Shown: one piece after another, positions 34,690 to 47,749 of the stretch
How positions within the stretch are numbered: position 1 is the first letter of the stretch
Layout of the letters: the number at the start of each line of letters is the position of its first letter
Program-made: the position numbers and the translations under genes
Notes under the pieces: model-generated
What the model was told of the DNA's origin: nothing
Database searches by the model: none
The model's input: the letters and a program-made list of their open reading frames with translations, nothing else
DNA from: a virus
Virus record (IMG/VR): IMGVR_UViG_3300035698_007508
Span: 62,755-126,754 of that record
DNA: 64,000 nt
Reading direction: 5' to 3' (one strand)

Positions 34690-36156
34690 ATGACACGTAG
34701 CACGCAAGATCCACCGGGCATCCCTCAGCGAGGCGAAACAGGCGACCCGACTACAGGGTTAAAACCTGGCCTGGTGGACTTCGTGCTTCAGCATCATCTG
34801 ACCCAGCGTAACCCTACGCGACCTCACTACGACTTACGACTCGGTACCCCCGACACCGGCCTGTTCTCATGGGCGGTGCCGGGGGCCCGGCTTCCCGAGG
34901 AGCGTGAGAAGGTGCTGGCGCCGCAGACAGATCTACACGATTACGCCTATGGTAACTACCAGGGCAACATCGCCAGCGGGTACGGCGCCGGCCAGGTACG
35001 GTTACACGAGCGCGACCAGGCGGAGATCACTAAAGTCACGCCCAAGACGATCAGTTTCACGCTGGCCAATACCCGTAATCCCGGGCGATACTCGCTGATT
35101 CATATCGGCACCGGCAAGCGTGGCCGCGACTGGCTGTTGATCAAGCGGCCAGACGTACCAGGCGGCCCGGTAAAGATGATGCCTATCGATGCCGGTAGCA
35201 CGGCCGAAGCTATAGAGCAAGTGAAGGAGGGTACGGTGAGTAAAGCGAGTAAGAAAGACGTGTGCCCTAAGTGCGGGAAGACACTCGGCGGGTGTGCCAA
35301 GTTTGCTGTCACTGACGGCGAGAAGTTCTTCCACCCATGGTGCTTGAAGAAGAAGGCCCGGATGCAGAAAGAGTCGCAGGCGAACACACCGCCATGGCTT
35401 GATGATTTCACCAAACGTTTGTGGATGCGTGAAAATGCAGGACGTACAGGCTACGACCCGGTCAAGCGCGTATGGGGTTCCTACAAGGATATGAACAAGG
35501 GCAAGGCTTTACGCGCCGCGTACGGCCCAGGCGTGGTAGCGCCGGCAGGGCAGACGTTCACGCAGCAGCAGCTGGACGCGCTGGTCCGTAAAAGCGTGCT
35601 CAAGCATTGGCAAGACACACAACGCGTGTATCCCGGTGTCGCTACCAAATCACCGCACGCACAGCAATTGATGGCCGATCTCGTGTACGCAGGTGCTGGC
35701 ATTGACCCGAAGACAGGCAAGGCCGCGTACCCTAAACTGTGGGAGGCGATCCAGGCACGTGATGGGGCGGGTGCCGCGGGCCAGTACCATGTGAATTTCA
35801 CCCCGGAGGGCGGGACCAAAACGCCCAACGTCCGACGTAACGCCATGAATCTCAAGGATTACGTGACGCCCATGACCAACGGCTGGAATGCGGCTACGCA
35901 GCAGCTGGAAAAGGGCGGCGCAGACCACCTGACGCTGAACAAGCTTTTGACAGCCGCCGGTAAACTGACAGATAAGCACCCGAGCCCGGAGCAGGCCGAG
36001 GCTGGTAACTACCAGAAGGGTCACGTCAGTATGCATGGGTTGGATATCTCGATTGAGAATCCACGAGGTAGTACGCGCAAGGGCGTGAGCGCTGACGGTA
36101 CCGAATGGTCCACGCGTATGGTCGGAGCACATTACGGATACATAATTAAAGGATGA
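34690..36156 (+). CDS. Polyvalent protein, 5' part: LigD-type 3'-phosphoesterase, Zn ribbon, lysozyme-like domain, N-half of InPase-like domain
   Basis: 'FVLQHH...HYDLRL...SWAVP...GYGAGQV' (LigD PE); CPKC..HPWC; 'LWMRENAG..YKD..AYGP...ADLVY..RRN'; 'ISIENPRGSTRKG...W...HYGYI'. Confidence 0.8.
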   Translation: MTRSTQDPPGIPQRGETGDPTTGLKPGLVDFVLQHHLTQRNPTRPHYDLRLGTPDTGLFSWAVPGARLPEEREKVLAPQTDLHDYAYGNYQGNIASGYGAGQVRLHERDQAEITKVTPKTISFTLANTRNPGRYSLIHIGTGKRGRDWLLIKRPDVPGGPVKMMPIDAGSTAEAIEQVKEGTVSKASKKDVCPKCGKTLGGCAKFAVTDGEKFFHPWCLKKKARMQKESQANTPPWLDDFTKRLWMRENAGRTGYDPVKRVWGSYKDMNKGKALRAAYGPGVVAPAGQTFTQQQLDALVRKSVLKHWQDTQRVYPGVATKSPHAQQLMADLVYAGAGIDPKTGKAAYPKLWEAIQARDGAGAAGQYHVNFTPEGGTKTPNVRRNAMNLKDYVTPMTNGWNAATQQLEKGGADHLTLNKLLTAAGKLTDKHPSPEQAEAGNYQKGHVSMHGLDISIENPRGSTRKGVSADGTEWSTRMVGAHYGYIIKG

Positions 36157-36497
36157 AGATAAAGCTAACATGTGTAGATTGTGGGGCCGCACGGGAGTTT
36201 TACCCTAGCGAGTTAAGCGGTATAAGCCGCGCACCGTATCCCGAGGTCTGGTCGCCGGTCCTACGCCGACGGGTACGTGAGCGCGACAACTATACTTGCC
36301 AGCTGTGCGGTACCGCCTATTTAGGCGGGCGTAAGTTATCTGTACACCATATCGATTATAACAAAAACAACTGCGCGGATGCTAACTTGATAACATTGTG
36401 CCTACCGTGCCATACTAAAACGAATTTCAATAGGGAAGAATGGACAATATATATGCAAAGACTACTACAATCGGAGGCGTATCATGCTGTCGCGTAG
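36153..36497 (+). CDS. HNH endonuclease inserted into the InPase-like domain
   Basis: 'RERDNYTCQLCG...LSVHHIDYNKNNC..NLITLCLPCHTKTN'; AT-richer than flanks; overlaps both flanking ORFs. Confidence 0.9.
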   Translation: MKIKLTCVDCGAAREFYPSELSGISRAPYPEVWSPVLRRRVRERDNYTCQLCGTAYLGGRKLSVHHIDYNKNNCADANLITLCLPCHTKTNFNREEWTIYMQRLLQSEAYHAVA

Positions 36498-38223
36498 CCC
36501 GATTGGTAAAGATGGAGATCACGTGGACGTGTTCATCGGCCCATACCCGGCTTGCACGATGGTTTTTATTGTCGATCAGCAGAACAAGGACGGCACTTTT
36601 GATGAACATAAGTGCATGCTTGGATTCAGGGACGAGGCAGAAGCCCGCGCTGGCTACCTCGCCAACTACGAACCGGGGTGGACAGGCTGTGGACCCGTGA
36701 CAGCCCTATCCATGGGCGAGTTCAAGGAGTGGCTGGACAGCGGTAACACGGGTAAGCCGTGTGCTAAGCAGTTCAAGAAGCAGGCTGACAGCGAGCTAAA
36801 CCTACGTCATATCCTGACGCTAGTCAAGCAGGCCGCAGGCATCACAGGCTGGCACGGAATAGATTTAGATGGGACTTTGGCAACATACGACAGCTGGAAG
36901 GGCGATGACTATATCGGGCGGCCGATCAAACTGATGGCTGACCGGGTCAAACGGTGGCTGGCCGACGGCCAAGCAGTGAAGATCATGACCACGCGGGGCG
37001 GCAACGGCCAACAGGCGATCGATGCAGTACAGGATTGGACTTACGCCCACTTCGGGGTCCGGCTGCCCGTCACGGACACCAAGGACAAGGACATGATCGA
37101 TCTGTACGACGACCGGGTGCACCGGGTCCAGAAGAACACGGGCGTCAAGCAGGCTAGTAACAAGGCCTTCCAGACGGCGCTCGACGCGTCGGACATACCT
37201 GGTGATATCTACTTCTACACCGATGGAAAAGAGCGGTGTACCGCGTGCTTCGGTGACTGGCACGAGCGCGAAGATTGGGATGCCGCAGCTAAGCTGGCCA
37301 AGAAACACTTCTCCAACTGGGAAGAGCCTGACGATTCGGAGATAGGGCGCCCCGACTGGGTTACCAAGTCATACAGCAGCAAGAACATGGCGAAGGACGC
37401 CGGTATCCGCCGGGTGATCAAACGCGCCGCCATAGAGCTCGACATCGAGATCGGTGACACACTGCTGTTTGGCAGGTACAAGAACAGCCCCAAGGTGGTC
37501 GAGGACATCGGCACAGACGCCAAGGGCCAGCCTACCGTCAACGGGATGAAGCTCCTGGCCTGCCGGATCGAGAAGAAGATGGCAAAGAAGGCCGAGTACG
37601 TGATCAATGATTGCCCGACGTGCGGCGACACTACTAAAGACCGTCGCAAATTGGATCCAGGCGAGAAAGTGGTACATACTGCGGATGTTTGTTATGCGTG
37701 TAAGACCAAGCAGGCGGAGAGCAAGCAACGGCTGTTCAAGAAGGACGAGCCTTATCCCGCTGTCGAGAACTGTGAGACCTGTGAGCGCTTCGGCCCGACT
37801 AAGGACGCCGCTATGGTCAAGAACGTACCACTCAAGGTTGTCACGGCCGACGAACAAGTGCGAACAAAGCTCGTGGCTGAGCTGGCTGACACGCCGGATA
37901 AGCGTACAGTTGGCCTGTCCAAGCGCGCCACGCTACCGCCAGGTACCGGTATGCTGTTCGATATCCCAGGCCCGTTCTGGATGAAGGACGTTAAGTTCGC
38001 GCTCGACATCGTCTATATGGACAAGCAAGGTACCGTCACTGAGATCGGACACATGCCGGCGCCGCCTCGTTACGTCCCGGACAGACTGATGCCGCGGTAC
38101 CAGTCTAAATCTGCGTCCACCGCCATCGCTTTGGAAATGCCAGCCGGGTGGGCGAATAGCGTGAAGCTACAGCCCGGCGATCGACTAGAGATTGACAAAC
38201 ATGACGATACTGCAGTACATTAA
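36484..38223 (+). CDS. Polyvalent protein, 3' part: C-half of InPase-like domain, HAD phosphatase, small domains, DUF192
   Basis: 'GKDGDHVDVFIGP...VFIVDQ...FDEHKCMLGF' ; 'GIDLDGTLA...IMTTR...LYDDR' (HAD); 'ELADTPDKRTVGLS...GMLF..FWMKDVKFALDIVY...ALEMPAG' (DUF192). Own GGAGG RBS. Confidence 0.85.
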   Translation: MLSRSPIGKDGDHVDVFIGPYPACTMVFIVDQQNKDGTFDEHKCMLGFRDEAEARAGYLANYEPGWTGCGPVTALSMGEFKEWLDSGNTGKPCAKQFKKQADSELNLRHILTLVKQAAGITGWHGIDLDGTLATYDSWKGDDYIGRPIKLMADRVKRWLADGQAVKIMTTRGGNGQQAIDAVQDWTYAHFGVRLPVTDTKDKDMIDLYDDRVHRVQKNTGVKQASNKAFQTALDASDIPGDIYFYTDGKERCTACFGDWHEREDWDAAAKLAKKHFSNWEEPDDSEIGRPDWVTKSYSSKNMAKDAGIRRVIKRAAIELDIEIGDTLLFGRYKNSPKVVEDIGTDAKGQPTVNGMKLLACRIEKKMAKKAEYVINDCPTCGDTTKDRRKLDPGEKVVHTADVCYACKTKQAESKQRLFKKDEPYPAVENCETCERFGPTKDAAMVKNVPLKVVTADEQVRTKLVAELADTPDKRTVGLSKRATLPPGTGMLFDIPGPFWMKDVKFALDIVYMDKQGTVTEIGHMPAPPRYVPDRLMPRYQSKSASTAIALEMPAGWANSVKLQPGDRLEIDKHDDTAVH

Positions 38224-43965: not shown

Positions 43966-45744
43966 ATGTCTGTCTCTTTGAACACCGTACACGACGTCCT
44001 GGCCAAAGCCGGTGACGGAACAATCCGTCCAGACGAGATCGAAGCACTGCTTGATGATCCCGACTTCCAAAAGCACATCCGTGGCGTTAAGCGCTCGGAC
44101 CTGCTACCAGCCATGTTCAAGATCCACGGTACGGAATACTCCCTTGCGGACTATCCGCAATTCTGTGCCTTGTACGATGCTCTTTACGTACCAGAGGTGA
44201 TCTTCATGTGTGGCCGGCAGGTTGCTAAATCAACCAACCTGTCGCGCTACGAAGTCATGAACTGTATGCAGATCCCTCACTTTCAGGTGCTGTACGTGGC
44301 ACCGCTGCAGTCACAAACGCACCGTTTTTCCAGTCTGTATCTACGGGAGTCAATCAACACCTGCCAGTACGCACGCTACTTGCAGGATGCCCGAGTCCAA
44401 GATGAAGACGCTGGCCCGATCATGAAGTCGGTTGGGCACCAGTCTTTCGGTAACGGTGCTGGTATCCAACTCACCTACGCCAAGACCAGCGCTGACCGAG
44501 CGCGTGGTATCTTTTGTGACGAGATCGACTGCGACGAGCTCCAGGACCACCTGGTGGACAACCTGGGTATTATCATGCAGTCGCTGACTCAGTCCAAGTG
44601 GGGTCTCAAGCGTTACACTGGTACGGCCAAGACTGTGGACAACACCATCGAGTTCTACTGGCAACAATCCAGCATGGCTGAGTGGGCGATGCCGTGTAGT
44701 TGTGGGTATTGGAACATCCCCAACATCGAGGGCAACGTGCTGGACATGGTCCAAGTACATGGCCCGTCATGCATCAAGTGCGGGCGCAGGCTTAATGTGC
44801 GTGCGGGTGAATGGATTCACGCCAAGCCTGACCTGTCTAATCGCTTCGTTGGCTATCACATTCCGCAGATCGTCGTTCCGGCCATTACCGAGGACCCACG
44901 TAAGTGGATGGAACTGCTAGACAAGGTTGGCCGATACCCGATAGCTACGACGTACCAGGAGATCCTGGGGATCAGCAGCTCCATCGGTGCCAGGCTGATC
45001 ACACAAGAGGACATCGAGAAGTACTCGACGCTCCCCTCCGTACTTGAACTCCAAAAGAAGTTGAAGAACTACCCGATTACCGTGAGCGGTGTCGACTGGG
45101 GTATCGCGGAACAAACATCTTTCACCGTCCATACGGTCATTGGGATTCGTCCGGATGGTAAAATACACGTCCTGTGGGCCAAGCGTTACATCGGGTTCGA
45201 TACCGATACGTTGCTCAAGGATATCGCACAGACACACAGGTTCTACCGTTGTAGGCTTATGTGTGCTGACTTCGGCGTAGGGTTCACCCAGAACACTATG
45301 CTATCACATCGGTTCGGAATACCGCTCATACAGGTGCAGTATACCCGACAGCAACAACTGATGACGTACAGGCCGCTACTGGGTTACCCACGCTGGGTGG
45401 TCGACAAGGTGGCGGCCCTGGAGTTGATGTACTTTTCCATTAGGTACGGACACATCTTCTTCCCGCCTCAGTCCGAGTTCAAACGGTACACTGACGACCT
45501 GTTATCGCCATATCAGGAAGTACGCGACGAGCGAGGCCTCGAAAACGTGGCCTTTGTTCGTAATCCGAATATGCCGGATGACTTCACACACGCACTATGC
45601 TTTGCCATGCTCGGCGCTATGCGGCTGGCCGGCAGCAGCCTACTTGAAGCTGTACCGCAGGGTGCGATGGGTGCAGATGTTCACACGGTGGTTCAACCCA
45701 CCACGGACAGCATCGACACTATGGAACTGTTGCGTCCGGCTTAA
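43966..45744 (+). CDS. terL: Terminase large subunit (GpA-like)
   Basis: 'MCGRQVAKST' Walker A, 'YVAP', 'CDEIDCDELQD', 'YTGTAKT', Zn-ribbon C.CG..C.KCG, 'GYHIPQI', nuclease 'GVDWG' and 'PDDFTHA'. Confidence 0.88.
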   Translation: MSVSLNTVHDVLAKAGDGTIRPDEIEALLDDPDFQKHIRGVKRSDLLPAMFKIHGTEYSLADYPQFCALYDALYVPEVIFMCGRQVAKSTNLSRYEVMNCMQIPHFQVLYVAPLQSQTHRFSSLYLRESINTCQYARYLQDARVQDEDAGPIMKSVGHQSFGNGAGIQLTYAKTSADRARGIFCDEIDCDELQDHLVDNLGIIMQSLTQSKWGLKRYTGTAKTVDNTIEFYWQQSSMAEWAMPCSCGYWNIPNIEGNVLDMVQVHGPSCIKCGRRLNVRAGEWIHAKPDLSNRFVGYHIPQIVVPAITEDPRKWMELLDKVGRYPIATTYQEILGISSSIGARLITQEDIEKYSTLPSVLELQKKLKNYPITVSGVDWGIAEQTSFTVHTVIGIRPDGKIHVLWAKRYIGFDTDTLLKDIAQTHRFYRCRLMCADFGVGFTQNTMLSHRFGIPLIQVQYTRQQQLMTYRPLLGYPRWVVDKVAALELMYFSIRYGHIFFPPQSEFKRYTDDLLSPYQEVRDERGLENVAFVRNPNMPDDFTHALCFAMLGAMRLAGSSLLEAVPQGAMGADVHTVVQPTTDSIDTMELLRPA

Positions 45745-45762
45745 TTTTGGGACAAAACAGGG

Positions 45763-45768
45763 TATAAT
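45763..45768 (+). promoter_or_regulatory. Candidate -10 element (TATAAT) upstream of the structured region
   Basis: Perfect TATAAT 19 nt after the terminase stop, in an AT-rich stretch. Confidence 0.45.
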
Positions 45769-45789
45769 AGGTTGTAGAGATATATACTA

Positions 45790-46850
45790 TTGCTATATCT
45801 CTTCGAAGGAGTTCTACGGCTCTCCAAGGTAACAAACGCCGTCGCCATACCATCACAGGCGTTAAAGGTGATCGACCGGAGCACGTCGTTAAACTGCCCA
45901 CCCCTCGCACGGTGTAAAACAAAGTGGATGCAATAGCGTCCGGCGCGTTTGACTACCGATACTAGTCCGTCATGACCAACTCAGACGTTAAAAGGCCTCG
46001 TCGTTTGGGCGACGTTAAACCAGGTTAGGCCCAAAGCGTCCACTGAAAAGTGGGGTCCGATTCCATCCTGGAAGGCAGGCAGGCGCGTATTGAGTTAGCT
46101 AGAAGCCCGAGGGTAGATAGCGGCCAATACGTAGCTGAGCTGTAGCTGTAGCCGTGGCGATGGGCCAAATCGGAAGTCTTGGGTACGACGTTAAATTACC
46201 TACTCTAAGCGGCACAGAGTATAAAGAGGCCGCACTACCGTCACCTGGTCACTCCTTGCGTAATTCGCAAGGGGTAAGTGGTGAGCCATAGGAATGGGCT
46301 TAAATTCCAGGCTGGGTCCGTGGCAACTCGCTCGAAAGGGCTATTGTGTGCCGGCAGCAAGGGGAAGTCTACGCCCCTTCAAGACCCCGGTTTAACCCGC
46401 GGTAAAGATAGGCTCGGCGTGGTTGGGTACGTCAACAGGGAAGAATAACCCGTCCAACTGGTGTCTGTAGCCACCTCAGTTACAGCGCGTCTGGTCCACG
46501 TGTACCAACGGACTCTCTACCAGCACGGAGTAGGATGCTGGCGTCGCTGTTAAGGTATTTGCAGCTGTGGTTATCCGGGGCACCGGGGTAACTCAACACG
46601 ACACAGGTGCCTTAACTTTACACGATGTACCGTGTTTATAGCTACTCCTAATGAATGGATAGCACATGGGTCACGCGGCGTAAGTTGTACGGCCCGGTAA
46701 GGTAGAAATGCACTACCTCTGGATAATCCCGTGGTTACGGGAAGTTGACGCCGTCGCCGGAGCCGTGTTAGGCTCTTTGGCGAAGGTAATAGGCTTTGTC
46801 GCCGAACCATTTCCGTTCGTACGCACAGGCCCAATCGGAGACTATTACAA
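45790..46850 (+). ncRNA. Candidate large structured non-coding RNA (boundaries and strand tentative)
   Basis: No credible ORF over about 1.1 kb; more than a dozen stem-loops including GAAA tetraloops; five CGTTAAA motifs. Confidence 0.5.
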
Positions 46851-47050
46851 TGAAAAGCAAGAATCCATTCCCGTACCTGAATGCCGGCGTAACCGGCTGC
46901 TGCTCCGTCGGTTTACGGCGTGAGCGTTACCCCACTTTCAAACCCCGATATCAAACAGGCAATATATTGTCACACCGCAGGAAACCGGCTCGGCCATGGC
47001 GCACCTGGAATGAGGGCGCCCGGTCGGCCAATCCGGATACATAGGAGGAC

Positions 47051-47254
47051 ATACTAGTTAATTGGATCGCGTTCGGACTCGCAACGTTGGCCGTTATAAT
47101 TCGCCTACGTAATGATCGCGTGCGTGCGGACTTGAGACACAAACTCGCACCACGCAAGACGCAACCGCAGCCGCAACCTGAACGGAACGTTCGTGATATC
47201 ACAGCAGTGGTAGAGATCGAACCCCCGCGACTGCCGGCGATTGGAATTGTGTAG
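47051..47254 (+). CDS. Putative 67-aa single-TM membrane protein with non-canonical (ATA) start
   Basis: AGGAGG at 47043-47048; frame reads ILVNWIAFGLATLAVIIRLRNDRVRADL...IGIV*; ends 6 nt before the next gene. Confidence 0.35.
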   Translation: MLVNWIAFGLATLAVIIRLRNDRVRADLRHKLAPRKTQPQPQPERNVRDITAVVEIEPPRLPAIGIV

Positions 47255-47260
47255 GCGGCT

Positions 47261-47749
47261 ATGCTAATAGAACTCATAGCTGTACTCATACTTGTGCTGA
47301 TCATTTTGGGCTCTGTAGCGAGCGGTACGTTGACCGTTTTGCTCGGAGCCATTATTTTCGCGACGATTGTACAGTTGATCTGGAAACTCCAGAGCAATTC
47401 CGCGTTGCGTCGTGAAGCAGCGGATGCGGAAGACCAACTGCAGGTCGATATCGAACTTCTGGAGGCTTGCCGGCGCGATCGTAAGATCAGCGAAAATCTG
47501 GCAGCCGAATTGGTACAGGAATTCGGACACATCCCCGATACGAGAGAGATTGGCCACGCCGTCCGGCTACGTCAGCGGAATCTGGAAGTGCTGCGTGGTA
47601 TGTTCGTACAGCAATCCGGGGCGCTGTACGGTAGTGCGATTCTCTTGGGAGTCGCTACATTTCTACAACCGCTGGCAGGCATCGGCCTGATCGGTGTCTA
47701 TGCGTTAACTCGCCTGCCGGCCATGCGTGTGCTGTTGCGCACGACATGA
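47261..47749 (+). CDS. Membrane protein
   Basis: Two hydrophobic stretches at the N-terminus and two at the C-terminus flanking a coiled region. Confidence 0.65.
   Translation: MLIELIAVLILVLIILGSVASGTLTVLLGAIIFATIVQLIWKLQSNSALRREAADAEDQLQVDIELLEACRRDRKISENLAAELVQEFGHIPDTREIGHAVRLRQRNLEVLRGMFVQQSGALYGSAILLGVATFLQPLAGIGLIGVYALTRLPAMRVLLRTT

Follow-up and report, generated by a model that had tools for sequence, protein, structure and literature searches.

Which element, if any, occupies the long gene-free interval between the packaging and the replication genes of this phage? The stretch analysed here, hereafter the window, makes up the final 64 kb of an IMG/VR record of 126,754 nt, which is classed as linear and ~60% complete. 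A sequence-only reading of it had proposed that a structured noncoding RNA (ncRNA) of giant size, recalling the GOLLD/ROOL class or representing a new one, lies on the + strand between the terminase and the replication genes. Part of this proposal stands, as the + strand does carry a structured RNA, the 62-nt Pistol self-cleaving ribozyme; a giant RNA filling the whole interval is not supported.

Gene setting and coding content of the gap

The gap comprises 1105 nt (positions 45745–46849), from the stop codon of the terminase gene to the start of a gene for a 64-aa protein. The gene for the terminase large subunit (43966–45744, + strand; phrog_675, E 5.6e-50) is the last one of a block of virion and packaging genes, while the genes downstream of the gap, on the same strand, are assigned to DUF932, RNase H, SbcD- and SbcC-like proteins, helicases, DnaB, and DNA polymerase. 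The PHROGs assignments on either side thus confirm that the gap is placed at the terminase-to-replication junction. The terminase has 414 homologues at E ≤ 1e-20, several of which are found on contigs of ~190–210 kb, which indicates that the phage is a member of a clade of large, uncultured phages.

The first gene past the gap (46850–47044, + strand) is preceded by GGAG 10 nt upstream and encodes a conserved basic protein of 64 aa (P0121). An ORF at the equivalent position of L059, the sole syntenic relative among the retrieved loci, encodes its homologue (P0122; 52% identity, tblastn E 4.6e-11). The ORFs 46850–47044, 47087–47254, and 47261–47749 share one common frame with two TAG stops between them; this arrangement is probably a coincidence rather than a case of amber read-through, since the L059 homologue of the first ORF stops at TGA. 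Further upstream in the window, the C-terminus of ORF 34690–36156 and the N-terminus of ORF 36484–38223 match adjoining parts of the same PHROG profiles, and the two look like a single gene interrupted by a 114-aa ORF (36153–36497).

The gap is noncoding. Its longest ORF has 87 aa, and scoring with the phage's own codon usage gave negative values in all six frames, against +0.1 to +0.3 for the flanking genes. The gap ORFs had no match in Pfam or PHROGs, and the 87-aa ORF, which is antisense, gave none when relatives were probed with it for spurious gene calls. A recoded gene was considered as well and rejected: no long frame appears when TGA, TAG, or TAA is taken as a sense codon. The longest stretch of the record without an ORF of at least 90 aa measures 1118 nt and lies at the gap, the runner-up having 593 nt. 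The initial impression that about 1.1 kb lacks a credible ORF was therefore accurate. Two other candidates were discarded, a decayed gene, for which tblastx gave nothing credible, and a mobile element, as terminal inverted repeats are absent. The window carries no tRNA, and the single tRNA-Gln of the record is far from the gap; the gap yielded no intrinsic terminator.

Close to the 5′ end of the gap, a TATAAT hexamer is present at 45763–45768 (+ strand), just upstream of the proposed RNA, as the sequence-only reading had it. Read from the sequence, it is a candidate −10 element with only a weak −35 sequence (TTAATT, 16-nt spacer). It was not called by the promoter scan, and the hexamer occurs nine times per strand in the record, which is about the chance level. 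Just 3′ of it, a perfect 9-bp hairpin (AGAGAUAUA/UAUAUCUCU) with a 9-nt loop is located at 45776–45802 on the + strand; this inverted repeat is formed in both the MFE and the centroid folds. The complementarity of its loop to GCAAUA before GCGUCC (45936) was set aside: it comes with no A-rich linker and is compatible with chance.

The pistol ribozyme at 45999–46060

A scan with 4227 Rfam families gave a single match above threshold in the window, the Pistol self-cleaving ribozyme (RF02679), at 45999–46060 on the + strand. It scores 50 bits, compared with a gathering cut-off of 34.5, spans the full model (positions 1–68 of 68), and has an E-value of 3.9e-6 when the 64-kb window is searched and of 1e-7 for 1.7 kb. 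No other pistol occurs in the whole record. P1 pairs 45999–46002 with 46011–46014 (CGUC/GACG), the pseudoknot pairs 46004–46010 with 46029–46035 (UUUGGGC with GCCCAAA), and P3, of six base pairs closed by a GAAA loop, pairs 46039–46044 with 46049–46054 (all on the + strand). The pseudoknot and P3 had been noted from the sequence alone as ttgggc/gcccaa and ccact-GAAA-agtgg, respectively. In the pistol family, cleavage is reported to take place at a junction past P3, usually GU, whose length is strictly 2 nt (PMC4604425) and which is followed by the 3′ strand of P2; the predicted cut here is between G46055 and U46056, in the 2-nt junction 3′ of P3.

We aligned the window copy with pistols of 21 further loci, all taken from contigs of other phages. 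In all 22 sequences, P1 and the pseudoknot are paired in 100% of the cells, and six of the ten P1/pseudoknot pairs show changes on both sides; in the slid controls, where the partners were shifted by 1–3 columns, pairing falls to 24–42% of the cells. The window pistol carries the consensus residue in 17 of the 17 columns that are invariant in this alignment. P2, which lies beside the cut, is composed of two standard and two nonstandard pairs; a 2-bp P2 is also seen in the nearest look-alikes, L099 and L152 (61–63 bits). An alternative 5-bp P2, formed by 46020–46024 with 46067–46071, 11 nt further on, would lengthen the strict 2-nt junction (PMC4604425). P2 aside, the window copy thus displays the features of the class that can be tested in silico, and it is predicted to be catalytic.

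With the family as described (RF02679; Harris et al. 2015, PMC4604425), the window copy shares P1, the 7-bp pseudoknot that joins the P1 loop to the P2–P3 junction, the highly conserved core nucleotides (A-rich linker and AGCGU), as well as P3, the 2-nt G-U junction, the association with phages, and a score above the curated cut-off. It differs by its two standard P2 pairs, by an extra hairpin and UUAAAA positioned 5 nt upstream, by the 1.1-kb gene-free spacer around it, and by its location, which is not, as is usual, directly past a stop codon. Indeed, the pistol starts 255 nt past the terminase stop and ends ~790 nt before the next gene, so that plain gene punctuation does not account for the length of the gap.

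Neither Rfam at E ≤ 10 nor descriptor scans for hairpin, pseudoknot, and AGCG, in canonical and permuted order, detected another pistol, be it complete, degenerate, or circularly permuted. Two long-range pairings of the pistol, 46047–46056 with 46929–46938 and 46014–46024 with 46386–46396, were also discarded, as the number of such pairings is at chance expectation; the former complementarity is not kept in L059.

Conservation and fold energy of the remaining gap

Alignment-based searches retrieved 36 viral and 56 metagenome loci with relatives of the terminase, all at most 65% identical, near records being left out. A single-protein terminase search of viral contigs gave no match, and neither did the genome collection. 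The closest terminase relatives are P0001 (89% identical) and P0002 (75% identical). An nhmmer search of these 92 loci with the gap returned the L059 leader only, and the same search of 1 Mb of pistol-bearing viral loci returned pistols only; blastn against 50,697 GenBank phages had no match. Pattern scans of IMG/VR for the start of the small gene, the hairpin at 46251–46275, and TATAAT followed by the 5′ hairpin yielded no homologue, the single match, L212, being unrelated. For the parts of the gap other than the pistol, no homologue was found in the phage loci searched, which are related or carry pistols and amount to ~1.8 Mb, and four complete relatives of ~200 kb have no pistol.

L059, whose terminase is 65% identical, has the same gene order, and comparison of the two loci delimits the extra DNA. 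In L059, the terminase stop is followed by ~35 nt, the same −35 box, and then the small gene, and ~980 nt of the gap (45745 to ~46727) are without a counterpart. The window has a sigma-70-type promoter sequence at 46745–46774 (+ strand), with a −35 box TTGACG, an 18-nt spacer ending in TGn, and a −10 box TAGGCT; L059 has TTGACG-N18-TAGGTT at the same position, with TGn before the −10. As both position and sequence are kept in L059, we assign the final ~120 nt before the 64-aa gene to a conserved host-type promoter and the leader of this gene.

The permissive cmscan of 45600–47300 at E ≤ 10 gave, besides Pistol, one chance snoRNA match only; GOLLD, ROOL, OLE, introns, RNase P, tmRNA, and tRNA are without a match in this interval. 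The Infernal/Rfam comparison that had been suggested for the large families and the introns therefore leaves Pistol alone above threshold. The MFE z-score of 45775–46740 is −2.19 for the + strand and −0.99 for the − strand. A coding control of the same kind, 966 nt of terminase sequence just upstream, gave −2.16, and sliding windows of 200 nt range from −2.5 to +1.8. By the fold-energy test that the sequence-only reading had itself set beforehand, the gap does no better than coding DNA. Every listed stem that we checked is found where it had been placed, and the claim that such stems amount to structure beyond chance is not confirmed, given the z-scores of −2.19 and −2.16 and the spread among the sliding windows. 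Three of the listed features are the pseudoknot, P3, and P1 of the pistol, and the last three lie in or beside the promoter and leader.

The gap is of large-ncRNA size, as are GOLLD (RF01998), ROOL (RF03087), and OLE (RF01071), and GOLLD and ROOL occur in phages, as does this gap. Unlike these RNAs, it has no adjacent tRNAs, no excess fold stability, no conservation, and no match at E ≤ 10. A giant structured RNA over the gap, whether of the GOLLD/ROOL class or of a new one, is unsupported, because no large-RNA family matches, the gap folds no more stably than the coding control, and the sequence is not conserved, ~980 nt of it being missing from L059.

Role and origin of the spacer

We interpret the gap as a spacer that is specific to this lineage and is transcribed from the packaging towards the replication module; the pistol would sever the transcript there, and the 3′ part supplies the promoter and leader of the next gene. 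On balance, we regard this account as probable. RNA that comes from the terminase gene, or that begins at the TATAAT at 45763, would fold the pistol during transcription, and the ribozyme would then cut its own RNA between G46055 and U46056. The upstream product would end in the compact ribozyme fold with a 2′,3′-cyclic phosphate and the downstream product would have a 5′-hydroxyl, which would uncouple the fate of the terminase message from that of the RNA running into the replication genes. We infer both the transcription across the gap and the self-cleavage. The other ~900 nt do not demonstrably fold into one RNA. RNA ligases able to join ribozyme products (RtcB, Rnl2) were not found in the record, which covers ~60% of the genome.

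Clustered ribozymes have been proposed, though not shown, to process long transcripts of phages, and an early transcript of a halovirus starts at most 3 nt from a hammerhead cut site (PMC3088659; PMC6765202); a review leaves open what self-cleaving ribozymes do in phage biology (PMC6765202). As in the ribozyme-punctuated operons of phages and prophages (Perreault et al. 2011, PMC3088659; PMC6765202), the window pistol is a coding-strand ribozyme between co-oriented genes at a module boundary, and its presumed role, the cutting of long transcripts, is alike. Unlike in those arrays, there is a single ribozyme here, it abuts no gene, and ~1 kb of noncoding DNA surrounds it. The giant-RNA call is in this way replaced by a testable pistol annotation at the late-to-early module boundary of a phage of the ~200-kb class, and a lone ribozyme where the packaging operon meets the replication operon is a clean place to test transcript insulation.

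The spacer could instead be an evolutionary leftover, in which cassette DNA, either acquired or decayed, is bracketed by a duplicated promoter and leader; the pistol would then be a relic, now without a role, of a former array of small genes punctuated by ribozymes. Such an origin would fit an imperfect direct repeat of the downstream leader, ~40 nt long (45815–45853, + strand; partner 46766–46810), whose copies lie near both ends of the DNA that L059 lacks. It would also fit the history of the junction, which was created by rearrangement, as judged from more distant relatives, in which the terminase gene is divergent from the DUF932 block; and the hairpin-CGUUAAA modules described below, other than that of the pistol, could be decayed pistol 5′ halves. 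The repeat is, however, short and only ~70% identical, and tblastx shows no trace of a decayed gene. Moreover, the pistol has lost none of the invariant positions and none of the pairs in P1 and the pseudoknot, and this intactness speaks for purifying selection rather than for a relic. We consider the leftover account unlikely.

Some features of the 5′ part of the gap are more in line with an RNA-level organization. Five CGUUAAA motifs (45860, 45887, 45986, 46013, and 46189, together 45860–46195 on the + strand) are each located just 3′ of a short hairpin; these modules span 45838–46195, and only the fourth one, at 46013, corresponds to P1 and the linker of the pistol. Five of the nine + strand copies of CGUUAAA in the 126.7-kb record fall within these 336 nt. 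Compact H-type pseudoknots are possible at three of the nine UAAA sites of the gap (45838–45871, 46176–46202, and 46201–46233, + strand), compared with 14 of 143 elsewhere on the + strand, a post hoc comparison with P of about 0.02. The third motif belongs to an accessory hairpin, CGUC-12 nt-GACG followed by UUAAAA (45968–45993, + strand), which ends 5 nt before the pistol. The same layout of hairpin, UUAAAA, spacer, and pistol is seen in the unrelated L152, L179, and L203, with CGCC/GGCG stems, and in L207, with GCC/GGC pairs only; since only two lineages have it, the support for the accessory hairpin is thin. The extra modules may derive from the 5′ domain of the pistol, by decay or duplication, or else belong to a composite RNA. 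The cluster of five suggests more RNA-level organization in the 5′ 400 nt than a transcribed spacer covers, and the P1-like modules and the shared accessory hairpin are small leads on the duplication and divergence of pistol domains.

Taken further, these features lead to a reading in which a novel ncRNA takes up the entire ~1 kb or only the 5′ 450 nt. It would have its own promoter (TATAAT, 45763), the 5′ hairpin, and the pistol as its maturation site, and would consist in part of repeated hairpin-UUAAA pseudoknot modules derived from the P1/linker domain of the pistol. The gap is the longest ORF-free stretch of the record, a perfect 9-bp hairpin follows the TATAAT, the CGUUAAA copies and the possible pseudoknots are concentrated as described, the + strand folds better than the − strand, and in the L138/L171 lineage, a pistol is followed by ~630 nt of conserved noncoding sequence. 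Against these points, the fold energy is equal to that of the coding control, Pistol is the only real Rfam match at E ≤ 10, the internal similarities are weak (E 0.2–2), and no homologue was found in any collection searched, the region being missing from L059; the module statistics are post hoc, and UAAA is in any case expected to be commoner in noncoding DNA. A long ncRNA of this kind is quite improbable in our judgment. Its more specific form, in which the 5′ 450 nt (~45775–46235) are a composite RNA, not described before, of pistol-derived hairpin-UUAAA pseudoknot modules around one active pistol, with its own promoter and maturation by self-cleavage, strikes us as very doubtful; if true, the 1-kb spacer would be a lineage-specific gene for a long ncRNA and not filler.

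A DNA-level site, such as an origin of replication, a site of packaging, or the junction of terminal repeats, is most improbable: the gap does adjoin the terminase gene ahead of the replication genes and has a slightly lower G+C content (0.52–0.54 versus ~0.57 around it), but the cumulative GC skew does not turn there, iterons and tandem repeats beyond a 22-nt GTAGCT run are absent, nothing in the gap recurs in the rest of the record, the terminase region is at least ~25 kb from the nearer record end in two complete relatives with terminal repeats, and a strand-specific ribozyme above the curated cut-off would be left unaccounted for.

Pistols of other phages show a variety of surroundings with which the transcribed spacer can be compared. 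Pistols are common in IMG/VR, where 83 of 117 pattern matches are pistols, with the pseudoknot complement and the AGCG core. Many phage pistols begin at or just past a stop codon, and some are found in tRNA arrays or in tandem pistol arrays. Together with the ribozymes of L207 described below, such layouts agree with the ribozyme-punctuated phage operons known since 2011 (PMC3088659; PMC6765202). In a crude survey, the median ORF-free stretch at phage pistols is 112 nt, and ~15% of these pistols lie in ORF-poor stretches of at least 740 nt.

An unrelated group comprises L138 (12190–13410, − strand) and L171, together with L211 and L194; L138 and L211 are ~130 kb long. Here, ~630 nt with 67% identity between L138 and L171 come after a canonical pistol and include a perfectly conserved block of 46 nt. 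The mismatches are even over the codon phases (78/69/70), which indicates that the stretch is noncoding. Pistol and stretch may together form a long ncRNA with the ribozyme at its head; the stretch has no similarity to the gap of the window. In L207 (2418–3320), a hairpin with a pistol and then two Twister-P5 ribozymes occur, all three ribozyme elements directly past the stop codon of a small gene, and the 15-nt string cctcgcagaggacac precedes both the pistol hairpin and the first twister. L117 (6258–7202, − strand) carries two pistols 873 nt apart, apparently flanking a gene, whose pseudoknots are fully compensated, with loop GGGC facing GCCC in one and GCAGC facing GCUGC in the other.
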